The position numbers and the translations under genes are program-made. A stretch of 64,000 nt of DNA, taken from the NCBI GenBank assembly GCA_017470425.1, contig JAFUYT010000026.1, positions 54,291 to 118,290 on the forward strand. Direction: 5' to 3'. Source of the DNA: Bacteroidaceae bacterium. GTDB taxonomy: Bacteria; Bacteroidota; Bacteroidia; Bacteroidales; Bacteroidaceae. The first letter of the stretch is position 1. Each line of letters begins with the position of its first letter. Below the pieces are notes generated by a model. It had not been told where the DNA came from. It searched no databases and saw only the letters and a program-made list of their open reading frames with translations. Of this stretch, positions 44,201 to 64,000 are shown one piece after another.

Positions 44201-47200
44201 AGACAGAGGTAACAGCCATCCCCGGCACTACGGTGACAGGTGGAACGGCCCACACCGATGGCGGCAAGAGCGTGGCTCAGGGAACCATCATCACCAGCGG
44301 ACAGTACGAAGTTCTTCCCAACGACCAGAAGAACTTCACCATCCACGGCGTCTCGCCCACCGAGACATCGACGCTTTATGTCAGCCGCGAGAGCGACATC
44401 TACGACCTCTCCAAGGACAAAATCATCACCGTCATCTACCAGTATGACTACGACGAGACCGACGGCTCAGGCAACGTCACGCCCATCAGCGAGCGCCACG
44501 TGGTGAACATCCACCTGACGTTCAAGAGCGGCGTGCCCACCGTGGAGGACATCACCGCGCCCGAGATCATCCTGCCCGGTAACTTCATCACCCTGCGCGA
44601 ACCCGCCGTGACACCCGGTGCCTATGAGATCACGGGCGGCGGATGGGAGCTCTTCGAGTCGCAGCGCGATGCTGAGAGCCACACCAACGGCATCGATTAC
44701 GACCCGAACTTCGATGCGCTCTACTGGTACCAAGACGGCCACTATGTCGCCTACTACGCCAAGAGCTATCTCGGCCGCACCTACTCCAACGCCGTGCCCG
44801 TATCCGTGGCCAACTACCACGACCTGAAGCGCGTGATGGACGACACGGATCACCACTACTACATCGACAACGCCAACGTCAAGCGCGATCCGAAAATCTA
44901 CATCAACGACTACAGTGGCAGCACACCCGAGCAGAACGGCCTTGACCTCTTCAAGAAGCTCTACGACTTGAGTGTGCTCGACGGTTCCGTCGTCGAGGGC
45001 GATCCCCTCTATGGTCACGCCCTCCTCAACTCCCGCGTCCGTGCAGGTGATAACCTCGAGTTCTTCCTGCGCACCGATATCGACCACAGCACCAAGCCGA
45101 ATCCTGCCTATGATGCCGAAGACCCGGAGAGCCCCGCACGCATCGCGGCACCCTGGACATCCATCGCCCCCGCCGACGGCGCCACCTGCTTCGAGGGTGT
45201 CCTCCACGGCGACGGCCACACCCTCAGCGGCCTCGACCACTCGCTCTTCGGCAAGCTCTGCGGCTCGGTCTATAACCTCGGCATCACCGGCTCCTTCAAC
45301 ACGGCCGGCGTGGCCGACACGGGCGATGGCTACGTGGAGAGCTGCTGGGTGAAGACGACTGCCACCACGCCGCTTGAGACCAAGCCCTACGCCGTCTTCG
45401 GCAATCCCACCGCCGAGAGCGGCTATCAGGTGGTCAATAGCTACTTCTGCGACAGCAATAATAATCTCTATAACACCACGACTGCTGACGGTATCACGAC
45501 CTCCGGCGGCGCCCGCGGCACCGCCACGGCCATGTCCGCCCGCGCATTCTACAACGGCACCGTGGCCTACGACCTGAACAACTTCTACCTCTACAAGCGC
45601 TACAGCGACCACACTACGCCCGCCGGTTCCACCGTCGAGTACCAGTACCTCCTGCCCGACAATCCCGACGTGCAGACCGGCCGCTACGGCAGCAACCCGT
45701 CGCTCTGCTCCTCGGGCTATGAGCGCAAGCTGAAGTACGTCGAAGACCGCTATGCCGACGGTGACTTCCGCTATGCCGGCGGCACCATCCCCTCCACCGA
45801 CGACGAGCGCTACTGGATAGCCGTCAGCGAAGATCCCGAGACGCACAAGGACATCGAGACCGTGCGCTTCTCACCCCTCTGGCCCGACGACTACATCTTC
45901 TTCGGACAGAAGCTGACCTACGGTTACTCGGCCACCTATGCTCATCAGGATGTGCCTACGGCTGTCGTGCGCGACGGCGGACGCCTCTCCCTGAACCCCG
46001 ACGCCAATCGCGTCTATCGCGCTCCCGCCTACTATCGCAACAGCACGATGGGTGTCGCCCACTTCAACCCCGCCGTCTTCCTGGCGCAGAAGGAGAAGCT
46101 GACTCCCGAGCAGATCGCAGCCAGCGCTGTTGCCCGCACGGCATACCCCGGCATGACCGCCATCGACTTCGCCGGCCACAATGACATCGTCGATGCCGGC
46201 GGCACCCGCAAGGCTTATCAATTGGGCAGTGTGTCCGTCGGCTTCCCCGCCGGAAGCCCGGCCTTCTACCCGCCGCTCCTCGACGACGGCGGCCTCACCG
46301 CCATCAGCAACTGCGACGAGACACAGAACCTCCTCGCCTATGTACCCGCCGCTGCCCCGGCCGCCGAGGGCGCCTATGCCAACGCCGCCACCCACGGCGT
46401 GCTGACCTCCTACTTCGGCGATGCCGCCTTCGACAGCTCCTATGACAACAGCGATGGCTACCGCCTCGTAGCGGAGAACGACGTCATCATCAATGGCCAT
46501 CTCGTGCAGAGCGACCTGACCGCCACCAACGACCATCTCCTCGTGGATATGCAGGACTTCAACGCACCGCTCGCCTACACCTTCGACGGCGACCACCGCA
46601 TGTGGTACCAGCGCAAGCCCCTTGACTCGGAATATGTCGATACGGGCAGCGGCTGGCAGGGCATCAGCATCCCGTTCACCGCAGAGCTCGTGACCACCGA
46701 CGTGAAGGGTGAGATCACCCACTTCTACGGCGGCAGCGAGACCAGCAAGAACGGCACCAGCACCAAGATCGGCCACGAGTACTGGCTGCGTCAGTTCGAT
46801 GCCATCGCCAAAGAGGACGGCGAGGGCAAGAAGGCGATGGCCACCTTCAACTATCCCGCCGCAGGCGACGGCACTTCGGTCATCGCTGACAAGAACGTCA
46901 CCAACACCTTCCTCTGGGATTACTACTACCAGAACGAGGACATCCACGACCAGAAGGACCTCAACAAGGACATCTACCTCCAGTACAGGCAATATTATAA
47001 GAACGCGCGCACGTACGCGAACTACGCCTTCCTGACGGCTGCCACGCCGTATCTCCTCGGACTCCCGGGCAAGACCTACTACGAGTTCGACCTCAGCGGT
47101 AAGTTCACGGCTGCGAACACCGCCGCCGCCATCCCGTCGCTCGCCAAGCAGACCGTCACCTTCGCCTCCGCCACGGGTGCCACCATCGGCGTGAGCGACA

Positions 47201-47700: not shown

Positions 47701-47763
47701 AGAACGTAACATGATACAAGATATGTATTGCAAGATAAGAGAACACATTGCGAAGCGTAATTT

Positions 47764-47825
47764 TTTCTCATGCATGATAAAAGCGTTTCTCACGCGTGAG
47801 AAAACGTTTTCTCATACATGGGAAA
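47764..47825. repeat. Three 18-bp (near-)palindromes TTTCTCA-YRYR-TGAGAAA spaced 22 bp apart
   Basis: Units at 47764, 47786 (perfect: TTTCTCACGCGTGAGAAA) and 47808. The core TCTCACGCGTGAGA is identical to the units at 11817 and 11861. The flanking GCAT(C)ATGA..AGCGTT is also shared. Confidence 0.85.
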
Positions 47826-47866
47826 CGGCGGAAGAACGGCAGGCGTTGCGTCGCACGTCGCGTCGC

Positions 47867-50800
47867 ATGTCATGGGCTGTGGTATCGCTTCACACGTTAT
47901 GTGCGGTGATGATGATGTTGTGCTTTGGCACCACGAGGGCGTGGGGGCAGGTGGCAGACGGTGTGTATTACATCCAATATTCAGGTAATAGTTACTATCT
48001 GTGGCCTACTGCTCCGACGAGCAGCGGCTGGCCATGCCTGACCTCATTCTCGGGAACAGATGTCCCTGAGACAGGGTTGGACTATAACTTCGGTGCTTTC
48101 GACTCATCGTATTGTACATGGATTGTCGTCACTGACGGGGATTATCAGAACATCATCAATGCCCGCTACGGGAAGTATGTCATTTGGTTGAGTAATGGAA
48201 ATGCAGGCCGTAATGTCGTGCTGGAGGATAATGGGCAAGACCCTTCTACCGGGCAGACCAGGGCTGATGCGACCCGTGCCCAGTTCAATATCACAGGAAC
48301 AGGCAACAAGGTATTGGTTAAGCCCTATACAGGTTCTAATTCATTCAATATTAAAGGGAGCCATTATGATTATATCACGGCATTCCAGAATGTCGTAGGA
48401 TCAAATCAGTCCCTCCTTCAGTTCTCTACTTCAAACAATGAATGGACATTTACAGAGCATAAGTTAGCCGCCCCCACCATCAGCTGCCCCGAGGGTACTG
48501 CCACGGTGACAGACAATGTGGGGCTGCCAGCGGGCTACAATGTGCGCTATACGGTTGACGGTACGACCCCGACGGCATCCAGTCCGATCCTTCCCGTTGG
48601 TGGGTATGAGGTCAGTGATGTATGTACGATGAAGGCTGTGATTGAGCGCTATGGTGTGGTGCTGACAGCTGTCGCTTCACAAGAGGTGGAGCCCAGTGTG
48701 CGGAAACCGGGATTCACGCTAAGCGCCGACGGCTCCGTCACCATCACGGCTGAAACGGGCCAGACCATCTATTATACGTTAGACGGTACTGATCCAACGA
48801 CCTCGACCCCGACTTCTGCTACAATGTCAAAGACCATTCCAGAGGCAGACGTGCAGTCGGCAACAGCCATCAAGGCCATTGCCTACGACTCAGGTGAAGA
48901 CCTCTCTTCCGGTGTCGCCACTCAATCCTTGGCCAGCTACAACTATCAGATTGTCAACCGCTCGAGCGCAGTGGGCGTGAGCCTCTCGGTGAAGCGGGCC
49001 GTGGGCGCTCCGCTGAGCAGCTATACCAGCATCCCTGCTGCCATCCGCAGCGAGTATATCAGCGACGAGACGGTGCGCTTCTACACGTTCGGCGGCGACT
49101 TCGCTGCTGCGAACCTCATCGAGGAGAACAGGATTACGCAGACGCCGGAGAGCGCCGCGAACATCTATGTCACCTACACGACCGAACACCTCAGCGAGAA
49201 GTTCCTGCCGCTGACCATTGCCAACTCGTACAACATCAAGGCAGGCGGTGAATACCTGTATTACACGGGCAGCGCCCTGGGAACCATCTCTGATGCCGCC
49301 ACATCGAAGACCGACAATGAATACATCTGGAATATTACAGGCGAGGATCCCTACAATATGGTGCTCCGCAATATCGGTGCAAGCCAGTACTTCCGCTATG
49401 ACGGGTCAACCCGCTCACTCAATGCCTCCTCGCAGCCATTTATCCTGAAGGGCACTGCCAACCACGCGACGATTACCACAGGCGTCGTTGCCGAGGATGT
49501 CACGCTGAGAACCATCGATGGTGCGGAGCTCACGTTGAAGGTGAACACTGTGGTGCTCCCGTTATCCTTCACGCTGATTGACAAGGCAGGAAAGGTCATC
49601 AAAGCTGGAATCACATATGAGGGAAGCTTTGCGCTGCCGACAGCCTGGCGCAGCCCTCTTGTCTCGCAATACAAGTATTATAAGAAGTATAGCACACTGA
49701 CAGCGGGTGTCTATGCCTTTGACGAGGAAGACCGGATTACAGAAGTAGGGCAGAGAGAATCTAACGTCATCTATGTCACCTACGACGTCAACGACCTGCT
49801 GGACCTCGACGGTCGCAACCTGCTTGGTGCCGTGGGCAAGGAGGGCGGCAAGACGTATATGCTGAAGTTCGCCAGTGGCACCGCTTTTAACCAAGAGAAC
49901 GGCAGCGACGGCGTGATGGACGCCGCACGCACGCCCGTCTATCCCTACAGCAACGGCGATGCCCACCTCTATGTCTATGGCGAGGAGCGGTGGCAGGAGC
50001 AGCTGGCCAGCGGCGCCAGCACCCGCGCGCGCTGGCTCTGGTATCTGGAGCCGGCCGGCGGACAGCTCGACCCGTACCACGTGAGGATCTCGTCGTACTC
50101 GACACAGACGAGCTATAAGGATACCGAAGCGGGAACCACCACCAACTTCCACTCCTATCTGCGCACCTACAAGCCCGAGGGCTACGCTTCCGTAGTGACG
50201 GGCGTCACCAACGACAACCCGTTGGCACATGGCGGGGTGGAAGGCGGTCCGGCCGACAAGAGCGATGCCACCGAGTATATGCTCATCGGCACATCGCTCG
50301 GCAGCCTGAAGCTGATCACCACCAGCGAGATCGACGGCGCGCCCGCGAACAGCGTGGCGGCGTATGGCATGCGACAGACCGTGAACAGCTTCGAGCAGTA
50401 CTGGAAGAACAACCCCACGGCCTACAATATCATCAAGGACGCCACCGGCGCTGGCGTGCTGGAAGGCACCAGCGTCAATGCCGATCTTCCCTCAGATCAG
50501 CAAGCGGCGCTGACAGCCAAGGGCTGGCACGTCTATAGCGCATGGGCCAATGCAGCCGACTGGTCTTCCAACTCCAAGCTGAGCAAGCACGTCGGCGATG
50601 GCAAGCACTGGTTCCAGACAGTGGCGATGGGCGACGGCTCGATGACCTTCGTGGATACCGAACTGGCCACGATGCTCATTCTGCTCGACCAGCACGGCTG
50701 GGAGATTGCCCGTGTTCACCTGCCCAGCGGCCCCACCGACCCGAACCGTGCCGCCCGCTATCGCGAGATCCACAAGTACAGCAGCCCGATGGTGGCGCGC

Positions 50801-53800
50801 TACCACTTCTGGAAGACCGGCTCCAAGGTGCCCGGCTATCATAAATACAAGGTGTCGGACTATGCCACCGTGAGCGACGTTGATCTGACGGAATACACAG
50901 CCGATGAGCTGGGTCGTGAGGACATTACGGTGAAGGCGCCGAACCTCCCGAACTACGAGACGCAGGCCAAGGTGGGCAACGCGGAGCGCGACTGGTATGT
51001 CACCTACGACGTGAAGCCCGAGTACGCCAACGCCTACGGCGCCTTGCCTACCTCGGCGGGCTCCGCTTCGCCCTTCCTGCTGAAGCAGGGCGGCAAGTAT
51101 GCCAAGATCAACGGCACATCGATTGACAAAGAATCATCGGCCGACCTGGAGAACACCGCCTACCACTGGTTCCTGAAGCCCAACTTCGAGATCGACGAGG
51201 AGATGGGCTACCTCTACGATGTCGAAGACGAGGGAGGTACCCCCATCAGCAAGGACGACACGAACCAGGGCTATTACGACGACGGCAAGGCCGGCTTCGA
51301 CCCCTACAACCTCCAGATCCAGAGCGTAGCGAACACTGCCCGCTACTTCACGGCCAACACCAGCGGCTCGACACCATCGAGCGGCGTATGGGCCGGCACC
51401 TCGTCGGCCATCACCCTTGAGAACCTGGGCACCCAGCAGGCTCACGTCATGGGTCATGACCAGGCTGACATGAACATCACCAACGCCACGTTCATGGTTG
51501 TCGATGACGGCAATGGCAATATGCGCTTGATGCCGCGCTTCGACCACGGCGTGGTCATGGACTTGTTCACTGGCCTCGCCGGTCAGGATGCCAAGGCTCC
51601 GGAGGGCGATGATGGCGCTGCCGACCAGTCGCTGGCGATCGAGTTGGTGCCCAAGGTCGTCCACAACTCCTCGGAGATGGGCGCGATGGGCGGCACCTAC
51701 GTGCTGGCCTCCGACTTCACCTCCACGGCTCCCATCGGCACTGCTACGAATCCCTTCGTGGGAAGCATCGACGGCCAGTTGAACCCCATCGCCCTGTCCA
51801 ATCCTCTGGTGGCCTACGCTGACGGCGCCGTTATCAAGAACGTCATCGTGGAGAGCGCCACCATCAGCGGCGGCAACGACGAGGACGACGTCGGTGCTAT
51901 CTGCTGTGCCGCCACGGGCGACACCCGCATCTACAATTGCGGCATCCTGAGCGGCAGCGTCAGCGGAACGCGCTATACCGGCGGCATCGTGGGTCGGCTC
52001 GCCGACTATTCGCGTGTCATCAACTGCTACAGCTACGCCAACATCACGGGCGGCTCGGAAGTAGGTGGAATAGTGGGCTATAATGTATTTGCAAGCACGG
52101 CTGCTAACCTTCACACAATGGTGATGAACTGTATGTTCTATGGCAACATCTCCGGCGCTACCACCGTAGCTCCGGTCTATGGCGGACAGAACATCAACAA
52201 CCTGAAAAGCGGTGGTTTGAACACCTTCAACTACTATGCTTACGATATCCTGAAGGGCTCTACAATCAACAAATACAACTGCGCCCTGGGCGTGGAGGAG
52301 AAGTTCCTGACGCGCTTCGAGTTCTATCGTCAGCTGCTGAACAGCAACCACCCCTTGGCCGCCTATTATGCCACCGGCAGCAAGGACAACGCCGATGAGA
52401 TGGCCAAATGGGTATTGGAGACGGCAGACAGAAGCATCAGCAATCCCAAACCTTATCCCGTGCTCCGCGCCAAGGAGACGGGTCGGAAGGATCCCTCCAT
52501 CATCAACTATGACATCACGAATGCCCCAGACAGCGTGACCGTGGGACGCAACCACGGCGGCAAACTGGGCAAGACACTCTCTGTCACCATCAGCGGCGTG
52601 GGCACCGGTGCCCCGGACGGAGCCAGCATCACGGCAGTAAGCCCTCTCTCCCTGCAGCGCACCGACAAGGACTTCGACCGCTTCAACTTCAACTACGACA
52701 AGGTGCAGTTGCCCTACTACAACGACGTGGGTACAGGCAACTATACAAAGAACAAGGTGGTGACCGGCTGGAAGATTACCGGCTTCACGGGCGGCACGGC
52801 AGGCACTTACACAGTTGGCGATGTCTGGGGCGGCTACAACTTTGCCGACCGCAAGAGCACCAACAAGGATCTCTATGGCACGGGCGGCAGCAACCGTGTG
52901 TTCTCGCAGGGAGCCTACTTCGATGTGCCCTACGGCGTGACCGGCATCACGATTGAACCCTACTGGGGTACGGCTGCCTATGTGAGCGATGAGTATATGG
53001 ACGTCGTGCACGACACGGGTTATGGCGTAGAGAATGTCACTCAGTTGGGTCACCATTACGGTGTCAATAAGACGAAGGTCTCCATCAACGGCGATCTTCA
53101 GGAGGTACATACCTCCATCAGTAGTGCCGTGGGAACCTTGAGCGGCGCCACCGTCTATGACAATGCTGTTGTGCTGGTTGGCAATGTGCATCAGGGTGCT
53201 TCGCCGTCCACCGGTGCTACGCCCTTTACCCTGATGTCAGCCGACCTGGACTTCGATAACGAGCCTGACAATAGTCTCATACTGAGCCATAATGGCCGTG
53301 ACAACGGTACCGTGTCGCCCATCCGCTTCGACTTCCTGAATGTACCCGGTATCGCGATGGCTCAGAAACCCAATGGTGCCACGTCGTTCCGAAACGTAAG
53401 TATCTACAAGCCGAAGGGATGGTTCGAGGTTACGAACACCTGCAACATCTACTTCGTGCAGTTTGAGTGTGACAACGGCGGCAAGTCTGCCGCGCCCGTC
53501 ATTCTCCTGGGCGGACTGTATGACCAGTTCGTGTCCACGCAGAAGAGCAACCCTGGTACCAACACATCCTACATCCACATCGGCGGTAATGCCTGGTTCA
53601 AGGACTTCGGAAACGGCACCCACAGTGATGGTGCCAACTTCACTCCTCACATTCCTGTTTCCGTGACGGGCGGCGACTTCGAGGGCTTCTATCTATCAGG
53701 TACATACAAACCCGACGCTGCCGTCAAGGCCGACAATGCGGAGTGCTACATCAGCGGCGGCCGCTTCATCGAGGTGGCCGGTGCAGCTCAGCAGCAGGTC

Positions 53801-56800
53801 AACGGCAATGTGCAGTGGCAGATCTATAATGCCGACATCACCGACTTCTACGGTGGTGGTGTCAACGCCGACAAGCCCGTGACAGGCAATATCACCATCG
53901 ACATCACGGGCAGCCACGTGGGCACCTTCTGCGGTGGCCCGAAGTTCGGCAACATGGCCACGGGCAAGGAAGTCACCACCCGCGCCGTGGGATGCACCTT
54001 CGACTACTTCTTTGGTGCTGGCTACGGCGGTATCTCCTACAACCGTGTGAGAACGCAGGATGCTACCAGTCCTAATTTCAGCTCATGGCAAGGTAACTAC
54101 ACGGGCAATCGGGGTAAATACCTGTCGGGGAACAAGGGTGTGGCCACTGATTTCGACTATGAGTTCTTCGTGTGGTCAACGGGTGCTACGGGCGGCCGCT
54201 TCTACGTGAAGTACTCTTCGCTCTCTACAGCCCAGACCAAGAATGTCTCTTCCACGCTCACCGGTTGCCTGATCAATCGTCATTTCTATGGCGGCGGTAA
54301 GCTGGGTAATGTGGATGGTACAGCCACCTCAGTGCTCAACGGCTGCACCGTAGAGGGCAATGTCTTCGGCGGCGGCTATTCTGCCGAGCATCCTACGGTT
54401 CCCATCCGCTCGGGCGGCTTTGCGACGGTTCCTAAGATTGATACGAATGCCGGTGTGTTTGATATGGGTGAGATGACAGCCACGGAAGACTACACCCTCG
54501 TTGCGGGCACCCTGGTCAATAACCAGTCTGCCATCAACGCCACCGCCAAGACCATCATCACGGATGTCGATCTGAACTCGCTGGGCCAGGTGACCCATGC
54601 CGACCTCACCATCAGCGGCAATACCATTGTCCGCGGTAAGATCTTCGACGAGAATGGTGATATCATCGAAACGACTGGCGGAGTCTTCGGCGGAGGTGAT
54701 ATGTCGGCCGTCAATGGAAATACGAGGGTCGATGTCCAGAACACTGAAGACACGGAGGGCATTCTGAATGTCTTCGGCGGCGGTAATACGGCCGATGTTG
54801 TGGGTAACACCGAAGTGTTCCTGACGGCTGGTACTGTCCTTCAGGATGTCTATGGCGGCGGTAAGGGTCAGACGACCATCGTCGGCGGTGACGTCGTGGT
54901 GAACATCGGCACGAAGACTGGCGAATCAGCACCTTATACCTATACTGGCACGGCTACCGTAAACGGCAGCGTCTATGGTGGTAGTGCCTTTGGCGCGGTC
55001 AACACCACCGGCGGACAGACCGTAGTCAATCTCTATGGCTGCACGAGTGTCAGCAACGTCTATGGCGGCGGCTTGGGCCAGCTCGCAACGGGCACCCCAG
55101 GTGATCCCGGCTATGTAGCAGCCATCGCGGCGCAGAACTTCGGTAACACGTCGGTCAACATGGAGAGTGCTGCTGCGGAAAGTGCCACCGTGAAGTTCAG
55201 CAACGTGACAGGAGCCATCTATGGCGGCGCGAACGTCAACGGCGTACTGAAGCAGGATGCCACGGTGACGCTCCTCGGCGGCACCGTGGGCACGGTGCCG
55301 GGCGAGGGCGAACGTACGAAGGATGTCGTCTTCGGCGGCGGTAAGGGTGAACCTACGCTCGTCGAGGGCAACGTGACGGTGAATATCGGCACGAAGACAG
55401 GCGAAGTGTACGCTGGCAATGCCACTATCAACGGTAGCGTTTATGGCGGCTCGGCGCTGGGCAACACCAATGCTGAGAGCTCGTCGAGCTACCATACCGA
55501 CAAGACTACGACCGTCAACCTCTTCGGCGGCACCATCTACGGCGATGCCTACGGCGGCGGTCTCGGTCAGAAGAACAGCGTGAACGGCGCCATGAGCGAC
55601 ATCGTGTCCTACGTGGGCGGCGATGTCCTGGTGCTGCTCGACGGCGCCAAGATTACGGGCAACGTCTTCGGCTGCAACAACCTCAACGGTACGCCGAAGG
55701 GCCATGTGAAGGTCTGGGTGATGCGGACGAACAACATCACCAGCAACGAATACAAAGGCAACAGCGCGACAGCGCTGTCCGGCCGCACCACCTACGATGT
55801 CGCTGCCGTCTATGGCGGCGGCAACCAGGCGGACTATGACCCGACGGATGCTCACATTGTCTTAGACAAGGAAGATCCGAAATATGAGGAGAAGCTCGCC
55901 AATTTCAATGGAGCCTTCGCCGAGGTGCTCATCGAAGGCTGCGCCGAGACCAGCATTCAGTATGTTTATGGCGGCGGTAATGCCGCTGCCGTGCCGGCCA
56001 CGGAGATTACTATCAACAGCTGCTATATCATTGACCAGGTGTTTGGTGGCGGTAACGGTGCGGGCACGGGTAACCCGGGTGCCAATGTGGGCATCTATGA
56101 CAATAATGGTACGCCTACGGACTATGGCACAGGTATTGCTAAGACCAAACTCATTGGTGGCCAGATTCACTACGTCTATGGAGGTAGTAACACGCTGGGT
56201 AATGTGCGCGGCGGCACATCATTGGAGCGCAAGGAGTCCAACACGTGCGAACTGAAGATAGGAGAGATCTATGGTGCGGGACAGGTGGCGCCGATGGACG
56301 GCGATGTGAACATCGAGTTGGATTGTATGCCCGAGGAATTTGTCGAAGCTGTATATGGCGGTGCCAAGAACGCCACCATCAACGGCAACGTCAGTCTGAC
56401 GGTGAGAAGCGGTAAGTTCGGCCGCGTGTTCGGCGGCAACAACCTGGGCGGCAGCATCAACGGTTCCATTACGGTGAACGCCTACGAAGGAGGCTGCGAC
56501 CCCCTCATCATCGGTGAGCTCTATGGCGGCGGCTATAATGCTCCGTACTCTATTTATGGTTGTAATGACGATGACGAGGATGGCATCTGGACACCCAATG
56601 CCGAGGCCGGAGAGCCCCATGTCGTTCAGGATGCCGAGCATCCCGCAGTAGGAGTCTATGTATGGTCATGTACCTCTATCGGCAAGGTGTTCGGTGGCGG
56701 CTACGGTGCCACGGCTGATGTGGTCGGCAACACCCGTGTCTGGATTAACCTGCAGAAGGGTCGTGTGAACGAGGTTGAACAAGACCATATCGGCAAGATT

Positions 56801-59800
56801 GGACAGGTGTTCGGTGGCGGCAATATGGGTAAGGTGAAGGGCAATGTCTCCATCGAGATTGGCACGGAGACGTCATCAGAGGATATCGGTGTTAACATCA
56901 TCGACGGGGATGACTACCTCAAGCCGGATGGCTCTTCCATCTCGATTGAAGCTGGCATCTATGGCGGCGGCAATGAAGCCGACGTGGATGGCGATGTGGC
57001 GCTCCATATCGGAACAGAGAACCAAAAGATTGATGGCGACCCCTCTGTCACCATCGAAGGCGACATCTTCGGCGGCGGCTATGGTGAGGCGACCACCGTC
57101 ACGGGCAATGTCGAGGTGAATATCGGTAAGGACAATGCAGGAACGCCCGTGGGATACGCCAACATCACCGGCGATGTCTATGGTGGCAGCGCCAAGGGTA
57201 AGGTGAATGCCACGAAGGGCGTGAGCCCAGCCTTCTCCGCAACAGCAGGGAAGGAAACACATGTCAACTTCTATGGCGGCTCCATCACGGGTAACATCTA
57301 TGGTGGCGGTCTGGGCGACAATGTTGGCTCTCATGCCGCCGATGTCTATGGCCCCGTCACGGTGACCGTCGAGGGCGGCAGCGTCACGAATGTCTTTGGC
57401 TGTAACAATGTGCTGGGCTCTCCGAAGAGCACGGCCGCGGTGACCTTCAACGGGGGAACCGTTGCAGAGAATATCTATGGCGGCGGCAAGGATGCTGCCT
57501 ATGATACCGGCGACAGCAGCACCGGCAGCGTCAGCGTGACCCTCAACGGGGGAACCGTTGCGCACGCTGTGTTTGGCGGCGGCCTGGGTGAGACGGCTGT
57601 TGTGAATGGCGCTACGACGGTGACGCTCAACGGGGGCACCGTTGAGAACACTGTCTATGGCGGCGGCAGCCTGGGTGATGTGACCGGGGCTGTCACGGTG
57701 GCTCTCAACGGGGGCACCGTTTCGCACGATGTCTATGGCGGCGGTGCGCTGGCCAGTACCAATACAGAATATACAGCAGGCAGCGCGCCCGCAAATACCT
57801 ATGTAACGAATGTGACGCTGGCAGGCGCCACCGTCACGGGTGACGTCTATGGTGGCGGCTTAGGGCAGTTAGCGGCAGCAGCCGTTCTTTATACCGCAGA
57901 AGACGCGGAAGTCATTGCAGGCACGAAGTCCGTCGGGGACGTGAAGACACCGGCCACGACAGCGGTAGCCGCCAACGTCGGCGGTCCCGTCACGGTGACC
58001 GTCACTAACGGTTCGGCCACGAATGTCTATGGCTGTAACAATGTCAACGGTGCGCCGCAGCAGACGGTGGCTGTCGTCATCGGTACGAAGACGGGCGCAT
58101 CGGCTCCCTACACCTACGGCGGCACGGGCATCATCTCCGGCAGTGTCTATGGCGGCGGCAATGTGGCCGCCTACACGGGCAATCCTACGGTGACGCTCTA
58201 CGGCGGCACCGTCAACACCAATGTCTTTGGTGGTGGTCTCGGTGCTACGGCCATCGTGACGGGCAACACCGCTGTCACCATGGAGGGCGGCACCGTCCGC
58301 AACGACGTCTATGGCGGCGGCAGTCAGGCCGATGTCACGGGCAGCGTGGCTGTCACCATTGCTGGCGGAACTGTCACCAATGATGTCTATGGCGGCGGTG
58401 CGCTGGCCAATACGAACACGGCGAACTGGGATGAGGCAAATCTTTCCACGACGTATGAAAAGATTACGGCCACGCTGACAACTGGTGTCAGTGATGTTGC
58501 TGGACTCTATAAAAAGGATGGCGTTAATTACATCATACAAGGAGCCAATGCAACAGCAGAAGGAGGTGCCGAGTATTACAGACGTTTCGATACGGCTTGG
58601 GCAGAAGGCAAGACTTCAGCCAGCAACACAACTACAGTTATACTCATCGGAGGAACCATCGGCAATGTCTTTGGTGGTGGTCTGGGTAACGATGAGACGC
58701 CTGTATATGTCTATGGCGATGTCACTGTCCATCTTAATAATGCTACCGAGAGAACCACTTATGGTGGCACAGGTGCATCTTTTACGCGAGAGATTGCACA
58801 GAATATTGTTGTTGCAGGTACGAATTACCCAACTATACCTACGACAGGCAAGATCTTTGGAGCTAATAACTTCAATGGTTCGCCTAAGGGCAATGTCACA
58901 GTAGAAATCTGGGCTACAAAACGAGTTGACGGAAAAGCTCATGTCCTCGGCGAATATGAAGTTCATGGCGTCTATGGTGGCGGTAATCTGGCAGACTATT
59001 TACCCGCTACAGCTAAAGAGACGAAGGTGATTATTCATGGTTGTGATGAGACTTCTATTGAGTACGTCTATGGCGGCGGTAATTCTGCTTCTGTACCCTC
59101 TACCGATGTTACAATCTATGGCTCCTTTGATATCGGTTATGCCTTTGGTGGTGGTAATGGTAGTAAGCCCGTTAAGAACAGCGCCGGCACTTGGGTTGCC
59201 AATGGCGGTGCTATGGTGACGGGTGACGCCAATATTTCTGCTCGTGGCGGCAGAATCGGTCAGGTCTTTGGTGGCAGTGATGCAAAGGGCGATATCCTTG
59301 GCAACTCGAATGCCGATATAACGACAACTACAGACCAGGAATGTTCATTGACGCTGACCCGATTCTTCGGAGCTGGTAATGAGGCAAACGTAGCAGGAGA
59401 TGTGAATCTGATTCTCTCCGGATGTGCCTCAGATAATATCCAGTTCGTACACGGAGGCTCTTATAATGCTCATATTACAGGTAATGTGAATCTGACTATT
59501 ACCAGCGGCTACTATACCAATGTCTTTGGTGGCAATGATGCGCGCGGCAGTATTGGCGGGAACATTACGGTCAATATAGAAGAGACGGATGCCTGTAAGC
59601 CTATTGTCATCCAGAATCTTATTGGTGGTGGTAATGAAGCCCCTTATCCTGGCAAGAAGAAAGACGGCACCGAATATTCCGAGCCTGGAAAAGTCACGGT
59701 AAACATCAAGTCGGCTACGCGTATAGACAAAGTCTATGGTGGTGGCTACAAAGCCGATGTTAAAGGTGATACCGAAGTCAATATCAATATGATGAAGGGT

Positions 59801-62800
59801 TCAATGGCAAATACCGAACTGACGCGTCCAGCCAGTTATACGGGAGAAACCATACCCAACGTACATATCACAGAAGGTAAAACATATATTAATGATGCCA
59901 TTGGAACCATTGGCGATGTCTTTGGCGGTGGCAACGAAGGTAATGTCATCGGCAGTACTACCGTAAACATAGGAACAGCTTCTACAATAAAGATTCTGAA
60001 GCGAGTAGGCGGTAACGCTGGCGGAGCCCTTATAGATGCAAGCGACAGACCTGTCTATGATGGAGAAGGCAAGATTATCAAGGATGGTGACGTACCCCGT
60101 ACTGTTGCAGAAGTCGATGCGGATGTTCTTGGCGCGCACATCACAGGCGATGTGTTTGGCGGTGGCAATCTGGCCTATGTTACGGGAAATACTACGGTGA
60201 ATATCAGTACGGTGGATTTGTCCGACAAAGAAGATGTCAAGATAGACTCTGGCAGCGTCTATGGCGGTGGCAGCCAGGCCGACGTACATGGCAATACCAC
60301 GGTGACAATGTCGGGCGGCTACGTCTTCAATGGTATCTTTGGCGGTGGTCTGGCTGGTTCGGTGGGAACGTTCACCAGAGATTATGGGCAAACGATCGAT
60401 GGGTTTGACCACTCTACACATACGTGTATCGGTAAGCCCACCGATTGTGCTGATGGTACGGGTAAATGTACGGTGGTGGTTAACGGCGGCCAGATAGGTC
60501 CCGTGACGGTGGCAACACAGGGTATGACCCGGGCGGCAGCCAGCGGCGGCCCTGTAGCTGAAGGCTGGGTATGGGGCGGCGGCTGTGGTATGATGGAAGA
60601 CCCGGCGGTTGATCCTGACACCCACTTCAAGACCTACGTCGGAAGTACCGATGTCACCATCGGTGGCTCGGCCTTCATCCTGGAGTCCATCATCGGCGGT
60701 GGCGAGTTCGGACGTGTGCTGGGCAATACCTTGGTGAAGATTGAAGGTGGTCAGATAGGCGTAGGAGAAAACTCTCTTGATGGAAGCGGTAATCCTAAGC
60801 CATATTCTGAAGATTTGTGGGAAGCGGCAGCTGCGGCTATCACATCGGGCAATGCTGATGACATTGCAACGGTGGCAGCACAGATGCCCGAATGTTCGCA
60901 TTTCGATTACGGAAGGGACACTAATAGCGACGGCGTAAAAGACGAATTCGTGGTTTACGACCCATACTATGAAGATCCCCAATATGCATCGACACATATC
61001 GGTCCGGCCAGCACTTCCAATCCTTCCGACGGACACACGTGGATAGGCTGCGTGTTCGGCGGCGGCTCCGGCTATATGCCCTACAAGAAGGCAGACGGTA
61101 CCGGCTATGACTGGCACCCCTCTGCAGGTCTGGTAGAAGGAAATACCGAGGTCCGCATCACCGGCGGCCATATCCTGACGAATGTGTATGGCGGCAACGA
61201 ATATACTGACGTGGTGGGTTCCTGTACGGTCACGATGTCTGGTGGCACCATTGGCGTGCCGCGCACACTGCCCCAGATTGCTAACCACCCGGTCACGTGC
61301 TACCTCTTCGGTGGTGGCAAGGGCGACCAGCGTACACATTTCAATAAGATGACGAACGTCGGCAGCACGAATGTCACGGTCAGCGGCGGTATCATCTATG
61401 GCTCAGTCTTCGGCGGTGCCGAGGATGGTCACGTCCTGGGCAACGCTGCTGTCACCATCAGCGGCGGCACCATCGGCACCTGGGGTACCTCCTATGTCGA
61501 TGGCAACGTCTTCGGCGGCGGCCGCGGCTTCTCAGGCGAATCCTTGACAGCCGGTAGCATCGGTGGCAACGTGGATGTCACGATCAGCGGTGGCACGATG
61601 CTCGGCAGCATCTATGGCGGCGGCCGTATGGCGGCCGTGGGCATTGACTTCACCCCAGTTTCTGATCCCTCCTACGGTCAGCTCGTAGATGAAGAAGATG
61701 GTGGCCCGACTCATGGCCATGTCACCGTCAACATCACGGGCGGCACCATCGGCCGGGACTTTGGCACGACTCCGCCAGAGGGTGCCGAACACAGCGGCAA
61801 CGTCTTCGGCGGCAGCATGGGACGTAACACGCTCCTCAACGGTTCAATCAATGAGCTGTGGCCGAAGATTGGTGTGGTGAAGGTGACCGACGTCAGCATC
61901 AGTGGCACTGCCGACATCAAGCGGAGTGTCTATGGCGGCAGTGAGTTTTCCGTCGTGCGCAACCGGGCCACTGTGAATATCTTGGGTGGCACCGTAGGTG
62001 GCAGCGTCTATGGCGGTGGCTACGGCAGCGACGACCACGCAACGAGGACGGTCATCACGGCGGGCGGCTACGCCAGCATCCCCACGATCTATTACACCTT
62101 CACGCCGATGGTGTGGAATGGCTGCGTGTCTGGCAACACCCATGTCAATATCTCCGGCGGCACGGTGAAGAAGAACGTCTATGGCGGCGGCTATCTGGCC
62201 TCCGTGGGCCTCATTAACTTTAACAGCGATGCCGCAGGCAACTTCAACTATGTGAAGAAGCATGAGGACTTGTCGAACAGCTTTGCCCTGAGCTGGCCTT
62301 ACGAACACCAGTACATCGCGGCAGCACCCAACGATGCTGCTTCGGTAGATGGCGGTGCCGGAGTAGAGGGCGCGGGAATCGGCGGCAAGGCCACCGTTAC
62401 TATCACCGGCGGCCACATTGGCGACACGACTGATAACACAACCGGCTATGTCTTCGGCGGCAGCAAGGGTAAGACCATGGAGCGCTATGCCGAGGCTGCC
62501 TGCGCCAACGTGCGTGAGACGGAGGTCAATATCCGCTATTCTTCCACTGCCTCCGATTTGTCTTCTGCTGACTGCATCCAGGGTGCCGTCTATGGTGGTG
62601 GCGAGGACGGTCACGTCTATGAGAATGCCGTTGTCAACATCACTGGCGGTCTCATCGGCATGAGCGTCTATGGCGGCGGAAAGGGTATCACCCCCTATGC
62701 AGGCAAGAAACGGAACACCACCGCTCCCTATGCTGAAGTCGATGCCGAGATCAACAGTTGGACAGCCGGCAAGGTCTATGGCAACGCCACGGTGACGATG

Positions 62801-64000
62801 AGCGGTGGCCACGTCATGCGCAACATCTTCGGTGGCGGCTACTACGCCTCCGTGGGTAAGGGCAACTATGCCGGCGGTGCCGATGACTACTTCACAAGCG
62901 GCTTCGGCGAGACGCTCACCGGCAACCTGTGGACCAGTGAAACGGTGGCTGCCGGTTTGCCCGACAGCGAACGCGACAACGCCTGGCACTTCCTCAACAG
63001 CGGTCTGACCACCGTCACCGTGACGGACGGCACCGTGGGTACGCCCGACGGCACCTACGACGGCAACGCTACCGGGCAGATCTATGGCGGCAGCCGCGGT
63101 GCGGCAGCCATGGACTTAGGCACCACGGAGTTGGGTTCCCATCCCCGTTACGAATTTACCCCTGACTTCTATCTGGGCTATACTAATCAGACCAGTGTCA
63201 CCATCGGTGATGCCGAACACGCTCCCACCATCTATGGCTCTGTCTATGGCGGTGGCCGTGACGGACTGGTGCGCCGCCACGCCCATGTCACCATCAACAA
63301 CGGTACCATCGGACTGGCATACAGCAGTAGTGATGCTTACCGTCGTGACCGCGGCAACGTCTATGGCTCGGGCTCGGGCCTCAGCACATGGGACGGTACG
63401 CACCATGGCACGTCGTCCGGCACCATTGCCTACAACACGACCGTCACCATCAACGGCGGTACCATCCACCAGAATGTCTATGGTGGCGGTGCCATGGCCA
63501 GCGTCGGTCCCCCGCTGTTCGGCGACGACTATGCCAGCAAAGCGCAGTCGCTCTGCACAGTCAACATCAATGGTGGCACCATCGGTTCGACAACAGACCA
63601 CGACACCAATAAATATGGCGGCAATGTCTTCGGCTCCAGCCGAGGTGGCGATTTCGCCGCAGGTGAGTCGCCCGAAGTGCTGGCCACCACGCTCTGGACA
63701 CAGGTCAACGTCAATGGTGGCACCATCGCCGGCAATGTCTATGGCGGTGGTGAGGCTGGTATCGTGCGCAAGAGCGCTGAGGTCAACCTGAAGGGTGGCG
63801 AAATCAAGCACACTGCCTACGGCGGTGGCCAGGGTACGACGGCCATTGCAGCCAATGTGGGCGGCAACACTACCGTGCTGCTGAATCAAGGCGTAGCTGC
63901 CACTGCCAAGGGTTGTATCGTGGATAAAATCTTCGGTTGCAACGACCAGAACGGCACGCCGAAGGGTCATGCCCTCGTACATGTCTATGCCACGCAGAAT
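47867..64000 (+). CDS. Giant secreted surface protein 2 (at least 5378 aa, open at the window end): signal peptide, CHB_HEX_C-like YTxDG(T/S)xPT motifs, GLUG-like repeats, very long YGGG-repeat beta-helix-like region
   Basis: Not in the ORF track because there is no stop. I translated frame 2 by hand from 47822 to 64000 and saw no stop. None of the listed + ORFs in this span is in that frame. MSWAVVSLHTLCAVMMMLCFGTTRAWGQ is a signal-like N-terminus. Other motifs are VRYTVDGTTPTASSP and IYYTLDGTDPTTSTP, then YTGGIVGRL..EVGGIVGYN (GLUG-like, about 51.9-52.1 kb). The exact start is uncertain (in-frame ATGs also at 47711, 47723 and 47774). Confidence 0.8.
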   Translation, partial: MSWAVVSLHTLCAVMMMLCFGTTRAWGQVADGVYYIQYSGNSYYLWPTAPTSSGWPCLTSFSGTDVPETGLDYNFGAFDSSYCTWIVVTDGDYQNIINARYGKYVIWLSNGNAGRNVVLEDNGQDPSTGQTRADATRAQFNITGTGNKVLVKPYTGSNSFNIKGSHYDYITAFQNVVGSNQSLLQFSTSNNEWTFTEHKLAAPTISCPEGTATVTDNVGLPAGYNVRYTVDGTTPTASSPILPVGGYEVSDVCTMKAVIERYGVVLTAVASQEVEPSVRKPGFTLSADGSVTITAETGQTIYYTLDGTDPTTSTPTSATMSKTIPEADVQSATAIKAIAYDSGEDLSSGVATQSLASYNYQIVNRSSAVGVSLSVKRAVGAPLSSYTSIPAAIRSEYISDETVRFYTFGGDFAAANLIEENRITQTPESAANIYVTYTTEHLSEKFLPLTIANSYNIKAGGEYLYYTGSALGTISDAATSKTDNEYIWNITGEDPYNMVLRNIGASQYFRYDGSTRSLNASSQPFILKGTANHATITTGVVAEDVTLRTIDGAELTLKVNTVVLPLSFTLIDKAGKVIKAGITYEGSFALPTAWRSPLVSQYKYYKKYSTLTAGVYAFDEEDRITEVGQRESNVIYVTYDVNDLLDLDGRNLLGAVGKEGGKTYMLKFASGTAFNQENGSDGVMDAARTPVYPYSNGDAHLYVYGEERWQEQLASGASTRARWLWYLEPAGGQLDPYHVRISSYSTQTSYKDTEAGTTTNFHSYLRTYKPEGYASVVTGVTNDNPLAHGGVEGGPADKSDATEYMLIGTSLGSLKLITTSEIDGAPANSVAAYGMRQTVNSFEQYWKNNPTAYNIIKDATGAGVLEGTSVNADLPSDQQAALTAKGWHVYSAWANAADWSSNSKLSKHVGDGKHWFQTVAMGDGSMTFVDTELATMLILLDQHGWEIARVHLPSGPTDPNRAARYREIHKYSSPMVARYHFWKTGSKVPGYHKYKVSDYATVSDVDLTEYTADELGREDITVKAPNLPNYETQAKVGNAERDWYVTYDVKPEYANAYGALPTSAGSASPFLLKQGGKYAKINGTSIDKESSADLENTAYHWFLKPNFEIDEEMGYLYDVEDEGGTPISKDDTNQGYYDDGKAGFDPYNLQIQSVANTARYFTANTSGSTPSSGVWAGTSSAITLENLGTQQAHVMGHDQADMNITNATFMVVDDGNGNMRLMPRFDHGVVMDLFTGLAGQDAKAPEGDDGAADQSLAIELVPKVVHNSSEMGAMGGTYVLASDFTSTAPIGTATNPFVGSIDGQLNPIALSNPLVAYADGAVIKNVIVESATISGGNDEDDVGAICCAATGDTRIYNCGILSGSVSGTRYTGGIVGRLADYSRVINCYSYANITGGSEVGGIVGYNVFASTAANLHTMVMNCMFYGNISGATTVAPVYGGQNINNLKSGGLNTFNYYAYDILKGSTINKYNCALGVEEKFLTRFEFYRQLLNSNHPLAAYYATGSKDNADEMAKWVLETADRSISNPKPYPVLRAKETGRKDPSIINYDITNAPDSVTVGRNHGGKLGKTLSVTISGVGTGAPDGASITAVSPLSLQRTDKDFDRFNFNYDKVQLPYYNDVGTGNYTKNKVVTGWKITGFTGGTAGTYTVGDVWGGYNFADRKSTNKDLYGTGGSNRVFSQGAYFDVPYGVTGITIEPYWGTAAYVSDEYMDVVHDTGYGVENVTQLGHHYGVNKTKVSINGDLQEVHTSISSAVGTLSGATVYDNAVVLVGNVHQGASPSTGATPFTLMSADLDFDNEPDNSLILSHNGRDNGTVSPIRFDFLNVPGIAMAQKPNGATSFRNVSIYKPKGWFEVTNTCNIYFVQFECDNGGKSAAPVILLGGLYDQFVSTQKSNPGTNTSYIHIGGNAWFKDFGNGTHSDGANFTPHIPVSVTGGDFEGFYLSGTYKPDAAVKADNAECYISGGRFIEVAGAAQQQVNGNVQWQIYNADITDFYGGGVNADKPVTGNITIDITGSHVGTFCGGPKFGNMATGKEVTTRAVGCTFDYFFGAGYGGISYNRVRTQDATSPNFSSWQGNYTGNRGKYLSGNKGVATDFDYEFFVWSTGATGGRFYVKYSSLSTAQTKNVSSTLTGCLINRHFYGGGKLGNVDGTATSVLNGCTVEGNVFGGGYSAEHPTVPIRSGGFATVPKIDTNAGVFDMGEMTATEDYTLVAGTLVNNQSAINATAKTIITDVDLNSLGQVTHADLTISGNTIVRGKIFDENGDIIETTGGVFGGGDMSAVNGNTRVDVQNTEDTEGILNVFGGGNTADVVGNTEVFLTAGTVLQDVYGGGKGQTTIVGGDVVVNIGTKTGESAPYTYTGTATVNGSVYGGSAFGAVNTTGGQTVVNLYGCTSVSNVYGGGLGQLATGTPGDPGYVAAIAAQNFGNTSVNMESAAAESATVKFSNVTGAIYGGANVNGVLKQDATVTLLGGTVGTVPGEGERTKDVVFGGGKGEPTLVEGNVTVNIGTKTGEVYAGNATINGSVYGGSALGNTNAESSSSYHTDKTTTVNLFGGTIYGDAYGGGLGQKNSVNGAMSDIVSYVGGDVLVLLDGAKITGNVFGCNNLNGTPKGHVKVWVMRTNNITSNEYKGNSATALSGRTTYDVAAVYGGGNQADYDPTDAHIVLDKEDPKYEEKLANFNGAFAEVLIEGCAETSIQYVYGGGNAAAVPATEITINSCYIIDQVFGGGNGAGTGNPGANVGIYDNNGTPTDYGTGIAKTKLIGGQIHYVYGGSNTLGNVRGGTSLERKESNTCELKIGEIYGAGQVAPMDGDVNIELDCMPEEFVEAVYGGAKNATINGNVSLTVRSGKFGRVFGGNNLGGSINGSITVNAYEGGCDPLIIGELYGGGYNAPYSIYGCNDDDEDGIWTPNAEAGEPHVVQDAEHPAVGVYVWSCTSIGKVFGGGYGATADVVGNTRVWINLQKGRVNEVEQDHIGKIGQVFGGGNMGKVKGNVSIEIGTETSSEDIGVNIIDGDDYLKPDGSSISIEAGIYGGGNEADVDGDVALHIGTENQKIDGDPSVTIEGDIFGGGYGEATTVTGNVEVNIGKDNAGTPVGYANITGDVYGGSAKGKVNATKGVSPAFSATAGKETHVNFYGGSITGNIYGGGLGDNVGSHAADVYGPVTVTVEGGSVTNVFGCNNVLGSPKSTAAVTFNGGTVAENIYGGGKDAAYDTGDSSTGSVSVTLNGGTVAHAVFGGGLGETAVVNGATTVTLNGGTVENTVYGGGSLGDVTGAVTVALNGGTVSHDVYGGGALASTNTEYTAGSAPANTYVTNVTLAGATVTGDVYGGGLGQLAAAAVLYTAEDAEVIAGTKSVGDVKTPATTAVAANVGGPVTVTVTNGSATNVYGCNNVNGAPQQTVAVVIGTKTGASAPYTYGGTGIISGSVYGGGNVAAYTGNPTVTLYGGTVNTNVFGGGLGATAIVTGNTAVTMEGGTVRNDVYGGGSQADVTGSVAVTIAGGTVTNDVYGGGALANTNTANWDEANLSTTYEKITATLTTGVSDVAGLYKKDGVNYIIQGANATAEGGAEYYRRFDTAWAEGKTSASNTTTVILIGGTIGNVFGGGLGNDETPVYVYGDVTVHLNNATERTTYGGTGASFTREIAQNIVVAGTNYPTIPTTGKIFGANNFNGSPKGNVTVEIWATKRVDGKAHVLGEYEVHGVYGGGNLADYLPATAKETKVIIHGCDETSIEYVYGGGNSASVPSTDVTIYGSFDIGYAFGGGNGSKPVKNSAGTWVANGGAMVTGDANISARGGRIGQVFGGSDAKGDILGNSNADITTTTDQECSLTLTRFFGAGNEANVAGDVNLILSGCASDNIQFVHGGSYNAHITGNVNLTITSGYYTNVFGGNDARGSIGGNITVNIEETDACKPIVIQNLIGGGNEAPYPGKKKDGTEYSEPGKVTVNIKSATRIDKVYGGGYKADVKGDTEVNINMMKGSMANTELTRPASYTGETIPNVHITEGKTYINDAIGTIGDVFGGGNEGNVIGSTTVNIGTASTIKILKRVGGNAGGALIDASDRPVYDGEGKIIKDGDVPRTVAEVDADVLGAHITGDVFGGGNLAYVTGNTTVNISTVDLSDKEDVKIDSGSVYGGGSQADVHGNTTVTMSGGYVFNGIFGGGLAGSVGTFTRDYGQTIDGFDHSTHTCIGKPTDCADGTGKCTVVVNGGQIGPVTVATQGMTRAAASGGPVAEGWVWGGGCGMMEDPAVDPDTHFKTYVGSTDVTIGGSAFILESIIGGGEFGRVLGNTLVKIEGGQIGVGENSLDGSGNPKPYSEDLWEAAAAAITSGNADDIATVAAQMPECSHFDYGRDTNSDGVKDEFVVYDPYYEDPQYASTHIGPASTSNPSDGHTWIGCVFGGGSGYMPYKKADGTGYDWHPSAGLVEGNTEVRITGGHILTNVYGGNEYTDVVGSCTVTMSGGTIGVPRTLPQIANHPVTCYLFGGGKGDQRTHFNKMTNVGSTNVTVSGGIIYGSVFGGAEDGHVLGNAAVTISGGTIGTWGTSYVDGNVFGGGRGFSGESLTAGSIGGNVDVTISGGTMLGSIYGGGRMAAVGIDFTPVSDPSYGQLVDEEDGGPTHGHVTVNITGGTIGRDFGTTPPEGAEHSGNVFGGSMGRNTLLNGSINELWPKIGVVKVTDVSISGTADIKRSVYGGSEFSVVRNRATVNILGGTVGGSVYGGGYGSDDHATRTVITAGGYASIPTIYYTFTPMVWNGCVSGNTHVNISGGTVKKNVYGGGYLASVGLINFNSDAAGNFNYVKKHEDLSNSFALSWPYEHQYIAAAPNDAASVDGGAGVEGAGIGGKATVTITGGHIGDTTDNTTGYVFGGSKGKTMERYAEAACANVRETEVNIRYSSTASDLSSADCIQGAVYGGGEDGHVYENAVVNITGGLIGMSVYGGGKGITPYAGKKRNTTAPYAEVDAEINSWTAGKVYGNATVTMSGGHVMRNIFGGGYYASVGKGNYAGGADDYFTSGFGETLTGNLWTSETVAAGLPDSERDNAWHFLNSGLTTVTVTDGTVGTPDGTYDGNATGQIYGGSRGAAAMDLGTTELGSHPRYEFTPDFYLGYTNQTSVTIGDAEHAPTIYGSVYGGGRDGLVRRHAHVTINNGTIGLAYSSSDAYRRDRGNVYGSGSGLSTWDGTHHGTSSGTIAYNTTVTINGGTIHQNVYGGGAMASVGPPLFGDDYASKAQSLCTVNINGGTIGSTTDHDTNKYGGNVFGSSRGGDFAAGESPEVLATTLWTQVNVNGGTIAGNVYGGGEAGIVRKSAEVNLKGGEIKHTAYGGGQGTTAIAANVGGNTTVLLNQGVAATAKGCIVDKIFGCNDQNGTPKGHALVHVYATQN

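Follow-up and report, generated by a model that had tools for sequence, protein, structure and literature searches.

A putative fibre-like surface adhesin of a rumen Prevotella-type bacterium, encoded by an intact gene of some 7,500 codons that is the last in an operon of fimbrillin-like genes

Introduction

SprB of Flavobacterium johnsoniae is a giant type IX secretion system (T9SS) surface protein in the Bacteroidota. In Porphyromonas gingivalis, the last gene of the mfa operon encodes Mfa5, an accessory protein that depends on the T9SS, is often duplicated in tandem and varies widely in length (PMC8512630). T9SS cargo proteins are also abundant in Prevotella (PMC11969387).

Here, we describe a locus in a stretch of 64,000 nucleotides (nt), hereafter the window, from a Bacteroidaceae bacterium (assembly GCA_017470425.1, contig JAFUYT010000026.1, positions 54,291 to 118,290 of the forward strand). 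Fimbrillin-like lipoprotein genes are followed there by two giant genes, g1 and g2, the second of which runs off the end of the window and had been described in a first-pass annotation, made from the letters of the sequence, as an open frame of at least 5378 amino acids (aa). Based on sequence comparisons and structural models, we consider it likely that g2 is the intact last gene of this operon, with about 7,500 codons, and encodes a secreted, fibre-like surface adhesin of a rumen Prevotella-type bacterium.

Results

Reading frame and full length of g2

Translated from position 47867, the frame stays open for 5,378 sense codons up to 64000, as had been read by hand in the first-pass annotation. 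The other five frames of this interval contain 42-321 stops each, and about 202 stops are expected in the g2 frame from base composition, which puts the probability of finding none at about e^-202. The GC contents at codon positions 1, 2 and 3 (0.55, 0.48 and 0.68) are a coding signature. The gene was missing from the list of open reading frames (ORFs) because its frame leaves the window without terminating, and the sole plus-strand ORF of at least 150 aa within its span (63195-63791) lies in a different frame, as the earlier annotation had also observed. The features of g2 and of the spacer that precedes it are the following.

47701..47866, no strand: g1-g2 spacer of 166 nt, with a palindrome at 47764-47827 and alternative in-frame starts at 47711, 47723, 47774 and 47846
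47867..64000, + strand: g2, first 5,378 codons (stop-free frame; 99.985% identical contig; colinear ortholog)
47867..47947, + strand: signal peptide, cleavage predicted before Gln28 (..TRAWG|Q), read from the sequence and the junction of homologs
48542..48925, + strand: two CHB_HEX_C_1 / Fn3_assoc Ig-like domains (Pfam, both above cut-offs)
48926..51616, + strand: non-repetitive head with recurring DPY modules (homolog searches; low-confidence fold model)
51629..52306, + strand: GLUG / Peptidase_M26_N-like beta-helix region (Pfam Glug at 51965-52048, homologs, fold matches)
52304..54586, + strand: family-defining conserved core, aa 1480-2240 (alignment; many invariant residues)
53810..64000, + strand: predicted beta-helix stalk of degenerate 25-40 aa units, xTxVxxxGGTVxGxVYGGGxGAxV (hidden Markov model (HMM) of the unit, 68 in the window)
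55655..60382, + strand: anciently duplicated super-modules (self-comparison)
60122..60205, + strand: internal copy of the C-terminal unit of the family, aa 4086-4113 (HMM, 37.8 bits)
60251..64000, + strand: extension module, aa 4129 onward (ortholog comparison)

Housekeeping proteins encoded in the window fall into 90%-identity clusters together with proteins labelled 'MAG: Bacteroidaceae bacterium'. Looking up g1 (GTG start at 34999) led to ENA contig ERZ28656003 (XIEF21-1 scaffold_357, 94,389 bp), which is 99.985% identical to window positions 24998-57700. On this contig, g2 is called as one product of 7,555 aa and the gene lies entirely within the contig. The length of g2 is 7,555 aa from the ATG at 47723, or 7,507 aa from the ATG at 47867, with the stop expected near window coordinate 70390, about 6.4 kb past the window end. 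In Prevotella sp. RGIG8841, a GTDB representative metagenome-assembled genome (MAG) from water deer omasum, the g2 ortholog is one ORF of at least 6,600 codons. It is colinear with g2 aa 1202-5378 (4,177 aa, 50-74% identity) and runs 2,131 aa past the point at which the window ends, compared with the 2,129 aa predicted for g2. Exact 63-mer scans of genome and metagenome contigs for the continuation of g2 past the window gave no match. The earlier proposal of a single giant gene reaching beyond the window is borne out by the 7,555-aa call and the colinear Prevotella ORF: g2, with about 7,500 codons, is one gene and is intact.

Although the sequence comes from a MAG, and although the protein is repetitive and many of its database relatives end at contig ends, it is hardly credible that misassembly produced the frame, that it is a pseudogene, or that sequencing errors in repeats joined several genes. 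Such an origin would have to account for 5,378 codons without a stop, for an ortholog in another species that is colinear over 4,177 aa with the same total length predicted, for 21 independent representatives of more than 5,000 aa, and for the exact g1 protein being present on 6 contigs. Moreover, the DNA repeats within g2 are at most 107 nt long and just 60-79% identical, and Tandem Repeats Finder (TRF) detects no tandem arrays, so that collapse or expansion of the repeats during assembly, a concern of the first-pass annotation, is unlikely.

With regard to the start of this intact gene, the nearest upstream in-frame stop is at 47555. The ATG at 47867 yields MSWAVVSLHTLCAVMMMLCFGTTRAWG followed by Q, a predicted N-terminal Sec signal peptide with a mature Gln start, in agreement with the signal-like N-terminus noted before. 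Signal peptides of Bacteroidetes tend to have a Gln right after the cleavage site (the Q-rule), and the g2 junction fits this. The junction, AWG or AWS followed by Q..G(V/I)YYI, is common to the g2 relatives and lies near their true starts; the N-terminal Sec signal required of T9SS cargo is thus read in g2 from both the sequence and the homolog junction. The public gene call starts g2 at the ATG at 47723 rather than at 47867. Just after the g1 stop, 47711-47740 gives the reading MI(Q/H)DMY(C/R)K(I/L), which the two closest relatives of g2 (P0001 and P0002) also have in their N-termini as called. The shared reading points to a DNA element that is conserved upstream of the true start rather than to coding sequence. 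The spacer measures 166 nt, one less than the gap first reported. Its palindrome has 34-nt arms that are 82% complementary, with no terminator-like T tract after it, and a promoter and terminator scan of the spacer gave nothing informative.

Domain organization of g2

The order of signal peptide, CHB_HEX domains, unique region, GLUG segment and solenoid proposed in the first-pass annotation was upheld. The two CHB_HEX motifs correspond to Pfam matches to CHB_HEX_C_1 (E 9.4e-13, in two stretches) and Fn3_assoc (E 6.6e-11); the two domains together span aa ~226-353. At aa 282-353, PF13290 and PF13287 score 48.4 and 42.6 bits, against cut-offs of 22 and 23, respectively, and the second stretch lies upstream. 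Beyond these domains and a sub-threshold Glug match, g2 has no Pfam match, and NCBIfam and PDB sequence searches were empty. The non-repetitive part that follows had been put at roughly 1000 aa; in self-comparison, aa 1-2100 are unique and duplications appear after them, so the non-repetitive part extends to about aa 2100. The head region is common to just ~11 relatives. Its model (aa 28-1227, predicted local distance difference test (pLDDT) 66) matches beta-trefoils, FN3 domains and fragments of the Aureispira protein GhpA, the last being the top fold matches (E 8.8e-5), which suggests that the head comprises beta-trefoil and FN3-like modules.

The GLUG-like block stands in part. The Pfam Glug match at aa 1367-1394 reaches 17.8 bits, under the cut-off of 20.5, but g2 homologs carry PF05342 and the fold matches point in the same direction: in Foldseek, this part has probabilities of 0.44-0.66 to 6xjb/6xja and of 1.0 to models of a phage 'putative IgA1 protease', and IgA1 protease and BACOVA_03286 (PDB 3n6z) are among its top fold neighbours. 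The GLUG part makes up less than 5% of the protein. An M26 peptidase role for g2 was considered and dropped because the HExxH motif is absent; it is likewise absent from g1 and the RGIG8841 ortholog, and the M26 catalytic domain has no Pfam or NCBIfam match in g2.

The core (~750 aa) is the best-conserved part of g2, with 49-66% identity to 47 relatives, and aa 1480-2240 have no Pfam, NCBIfam or PDB match. The AlphaFold (AF2) model of aa 1240-2439, made from 48 sequences, is nearly all beta (pLDDT 90.2, predicted template modelling score 0.88). The top neighbours of the core and stalk model are the beta-helix adhesins EtpA, Ag43, Fap2 and pertactin, tailspikes and carrageenase. The many invariant D, E, H and C residues of the core, together with weak fold neighbours such as the iota-carrageenase GH82, a GH55 laminarinase, CBA120 tailspikes and pectate-lyase-like phage proteins, could be taken to indicate that core and beta-helix together act as an enzyme, be it a polysaccharide depolymerase, a lyase or a protease, resembling tailspikes or pectate lyases, with the stalk as a mere spacer and degradation rather than adhesion as the main function. 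CHB_HEX and lectin-like modules do often accompany glycosidases. Nevertheless, we consider an enzyme unlikely: those fold matches are all non-significant (E 0.6-8, probability at most 0.07), g2 matches no catalytic Pfam or NCBIfam family, and a catalytic role would not account for a stalk that exceeds 5,000 aa.

The VYGGG units, which had been reported to continue to the window end, start at aa 1982 (nt 53810); the unit HMM finds 68 of them in g2 aa 1982-5323 and 97 in the ortholog, while g1 has 23, within aa 95-1841. There are also larger, old duplications: aa 2597-3160 align with aa 3660-4172 at 39% identity, and aa 3131-3300 with aa 3314-3518 at 48% (both by self-comparison). We regard the stalk as a probable right-handed beta-helix of more than 5,000 aa, which would have arisen from old duplications of modules of 0.5-1.5 thousand aa (kaa). 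The internal copy of the terminal unit at aa 4086-4113 lies where a 'complete' family protein gives way to an extension at the C-terminal side. In the RGIG8841 ortholog, a second copy of the extension module (41-45% identity) lies beyond the point corresponding to the window end. Given the internal terminal-unit copy, g2 looks like a complete family protein followed by an extension of two paralogous modules of ~1.5-1.9 kaa.

The g2 family

The N-terminal 2,000 aa of g2 have 114 relatives. The stalk region has at least 2,188 in 90%-identity clusters, typically of 1.4-2.3 kaa, whose sources are without exception metagenomes of rumen or gut and MAGs labelled Bacteroidaceae, Bacteroidales or Prevotella. 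With aa 1480-2300 as a core query, 538 representatives at 50% identity were retrieved (427 with E <= 1e-30). Among the best 150 core representatives, 21 are giants of 5,000-7,954 aa; giant versions therefore recur and g2 is no outlier. The proteins listed in the three homolog searches do not exceed 3,490, 2,274 and 2,320 aa, many of them being fragments cut at contig ends, and the representative search lists relatives of up to 7,954 aa. The g2 protein itself is absent from the results of the 5.8-billion-protein search. As the relatives are mostly contig-end fragments and g2 was not retrieved, the sizes and lengths of the family are underestimated.

We define this group here as the 'GLUG-core-VYGGG solenoid' family of Prevotella and Bacteroidaceae MAGs, which had no name before; neither the literature searched nor the domain libraries contain an account of it. 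The gene g2 shows the arrangement that defines membership, namely the core (aa 1480-2240), then VYGGG units, and a g1-like gene as its immediate upstream neighbour.

The C-terminal end of g2 and its partner g1

The features of g1 that bear on the export of g2 are the following.

34999..47700, + strand: g1, 4,233 aa as called (GTG start; aa 95-1841 carry the VYGGG repeat type)
47398..47697, + strand: last 100 aa of g1, a divergent tail resembling a T9SS type A sorting domain (homolog tails)

A g1-like gene of 3,393-4,233 aa lies directly upstream in all four of the g2-like loci that were looked up, with a spacing between a 4-nt overlap and an 85-nt gap, and these upstream genes are colinear g1 homologs. 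TIGR04183 is matched by 14 of 31 aligned g1-like tails (best E 1.7e-5) and is their sole family match; one of these tails exceeds the cut-off (25.3 bits against 23). The tail of g1 itself is below detection, with no TIGR04183 match. With regard to paralogy between the two giant proteins, which the first-pass annotation had raised, a BLAST comparison of g1 and g2 gives an E value of ~5e-7 and g1 contains the 23 units mentioned above: the paralogy is limited to the repeat type.

For g2, a check for a T9SS C-terminal domain (CTD) at the true C-terminus had been suggested. As the end of g2 lies outside the window, it was judged from the ortholog and the ends of the relatives, most of which show a solenoid unit in place of a CTD. 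The RGIG8841 ortholog ends in GNVYGGGDNGKVKKDTDVVIGAQ directly before the stop, and its last 1,000 aa have no Pfam or NCBIfam match even at E <= 10. Together with ~15 of the 21 giant representatives, it ends in the pattern ..GNV(Y/F)GGGDxGxVKKDxEVxIG(E/D). Among 234 relatives, 86 end no more than 12 residues from VYGGGNxAxVTGxTNVxIG, and in one locus (L001) this terminal-unit end is a true stop followed by a gene on the opposite strand. PF18962 is carried by none of the relatives from the N-terminal and stalk-region homolog searches. One representative of 6,166 aa (P0464) has a T9SS type A-like tail, ..GVYMLRLVKSNEILKVQKIVIEK, in place of a solenoid unit, so a CTD-bearing version of the family exists. 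This protein, the CTD-like tail of neighbouring g1 and the wealth of T9SS cargo in the Prevotella lineage of the Bacteroidota (PMC11969387) would suit an ordinary T9SS cargo adhesin with its own CTD beyond the window, secreted by T9SS and self-anchored. In view of the end of the colinear ortholog, the solenoid ends of ~15 of 21 giants and 86 of 234 relatives, and the lack of PF18962 among the searched relatives, we find such a protein improbable.

Unexpectedly, mature g1-like proteins open, just after the signal peptide, with Q-I-K-I-G-G-N-V-Y-G-G-G-N-x-A-x-V-x-G-S-T-x-V-T-V, and this first unit is nearly identical to the last unit of g2-family proteins. Among 80 g1-like ORFs scanned (loci L008-L087, median available length ~3,900 aa), the best match of the HMM of the g2-family C-terminus is the first post-signal unit in 75. 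In g1 itself, the best match is aa 94-116, in the unit at 35272-35350 (aa 92-118). No fusion of g2 with g1 occurs among 142 representatives.

Genes upstream of g1

The gene cluster that precedes g1 comprises the following genes.

23360-24934, + strand: DUF3575 gene, cluster head
25012-26247, + strand: DUF5119-like lipoprotein gene, cluster head
27747-29645, + strand: fimbrillin-like lipoprotein, 632 aa
30308-32242, + strand: fimbrillin-like lipoprotein, 644 aa
32346-33575, + strand: Mfa_like_1 lipoprotein, 409 aa
33584..35002, + strand: lip472 lipoprotein, whose end overlaps the g1 start (homolog searches; family distantly fimbrillin-like)

The three fimbrillin-like lipoprotein genes span 27747..33575 on the + strand. 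At least 214 metagenome loci with a g1-like gene were found and 80 were examined. A lip472 homolog lies immediately upstream of the g1-like gene in 77 of the 80, homologs of the Mfa_like_1 gene are also present in 27 of those loci, most of the 27 having 632/644-aa lipoprotein genes too, and a few loci add DUF5119 or DUF3575 homologs; the gene order is that of the window. The order fimbrillin-like lipoproteins, lip472, g1, g2 is conserved in rumen Prevotella-type bacteria. One lip472 homolog matches Mfa_like_1 at 25.4 bits. The label of type V pilus is based on threshold Pfam matches, lipoprotein signals and gene order.

Several other elements were observed in this cluster. AT-rich tandem units of ~125-128 nt occupy 26249-26575 and 27096-27591, on either side of a GxxExxY/PDDEXK_3 gene (26580-27083) and just upstream of the first fimbrillin-like gene, and a 57-nt core rich in CATAAATTA is present seven times. 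All sites at which the window departs from ERZ28656003 fall within these units. The GC content falls to 0.39-0.48 over 26-32 kb. Within this low-GC stretch, between the paralogous 632- and 644-aa genes, a 183-aa ORF (29707-30258), also called on the public contig, has no family match. A 66-nt element is present in two copies that are 94% identical (33581-33646 and 35062-35127), with a GC hairpin (CCGGCC..GGCCGG) followed by short tandem repeats. The two copies are located at the 5' ends of the ORFs of lip472 and g1, so the long, basic 'extensions' at both N-termini as called are probably leader, and the true starts of the two genes are probably later than called, for instance Met69 in g1.

Discussion

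The proposed g2 product would be a very long cell-surface adhesin fibre in which a lectin-like head of glycan-binding type is held far from the cell. The rise of a beta-helix is ~0.48 nm per coil; with 25-40 residues per coil, the modelled stalk alone would measure from several tens of nm to ~100 nm. As g2 appears to have no CTD of its own, it would probably reach the surface and stay there through g1, with its putative divergent T9SS type A tail, and/or the fimbria-like proteins. A possible step is that the conserved last coil of g2 stacks end-to-end on the first coil of mature g1, to which it is nearly identical. The two proteins could then be the two parts of one split fibre exceeding 11,000 residues, in which g2 is exported and held by docking onto g1, and g1 by its T9SS tail, with a link to a type V pilus-like apparatus. 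We put this forward tentatively and consider it doubtful in its entirety. If true, the split fibre would be a new way to build a bacterial surface appendage and a form of piggy-back T9SS export.

Several points weigh against the proposed adhesin. A g2 protein without a CTD would still have to cross the outer membrane by the putative route of export and anchoring outlined above. The 6,166-aa relative with a CTD-like tail departs from the solenoid end. The last 2,129 aa of g2 are taken from the RGIG8841 ortholog, and the head model is too weak to place domains. The fold search with the core and stalk model gave no significant global match, including in the PDB, and the invariant D, E, H and C residues of the core may serve catalysis rather than structure. 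The fimbrillin assignment is at threshold level in Pfam (27.7 bits against a cut-off of 27; 25.4 against 27), NCBIfam and PDB sequence searches with the fimbrillin-like upstream genes were empty, and no T9SS genes are present within the window.

Prevotella-type bacteria dominate the rumen, and their attachment to plant particles, host surfaces and other microbes is poorly known. The cassette is common, a g1-like gene being found in at least 214 metagenome loci and the g2 core in hundreds of 50%-identity clusters, and it encodes 6,000-12,000 residues that domain libraries do not describe, in association with fimbria-like genes and a signal for the T9SS. If it does form a surface fibre, this would be a major unstudied adhesion organelle of Prevotella-type bacteria. 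The CTD-less partner would then raise the testable question of the way in which T9SS or pilus systems deal with proteins of this kind. As regards annotation, the case is instructive in that the database relatives are mostly contig-end fragments and gene-length filters hide real proteins.

Compared with known systems, g2 has a probable GLUG-type beta-helix segment like that of the streptococcal IgA1 protease (GLUG / Peptidase_M26_N) and BACOVA_03286 (3n6z); unlike IgA1 protease, it lacks the M26 catalytic domain and HExxH. Its predicted long right-handed beta-helix rod of short Gly-rich coils resembles those of Antigen 43, pertactin, Fap2 and EtpA, with fold matches to these that are non-significant (E >= 0.06). 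In contrast to those proteins, the g2 family belongs to Bacteroidales and to another secretion context, and neither a beta-barrel translocator nor a two-partner secretion (TPS) domain is matched by Pfam or NCBIfam in g2, g1 or the end of the ortholog. SprB and the Aureispira grappling hook protein GhpA are surface filaments of several thousand residues built from repeats, as is proposed for g2. They differ from g2 in that no sequence similarity was found, in carrying their own T9SS signals, in their repeat types and in having no link to a fimbrillin operon.

The likeness to Mfa5 of the P. gingivalis Mfa1 type V fimbria lies in the genetic arrangement. Like Mfa5, g1 and g2 are large non-fimbrillin proteins whose genes close a fimbrillin operon at its 3' end, the fimbrillin calls here being at threshold level. 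Mfa5 needs a T9SS CTD, and the g1 family has a CTD-like tail; Mfa5 often occurs as two tandem genes, and the g1-g2 pair occupies that position. Whereas Mfa5 has ~1,200 aa with vWA and Ig-like domains, g1 and g2 are predicted beta-helix proteins of 4,200 and 7,500 aa in which no vWA domain is matched, and a CTD-like tail is found just on the g1 family. Giant surface proteins with a beta-helix are of a known kind, as are accessory proteins linked to the T9SS or to pili; the present family, its cassette of two genes, the giant partner without a CTD and the correspondence of the terminal units are described neither in the domain libraries nor in the papers searched.

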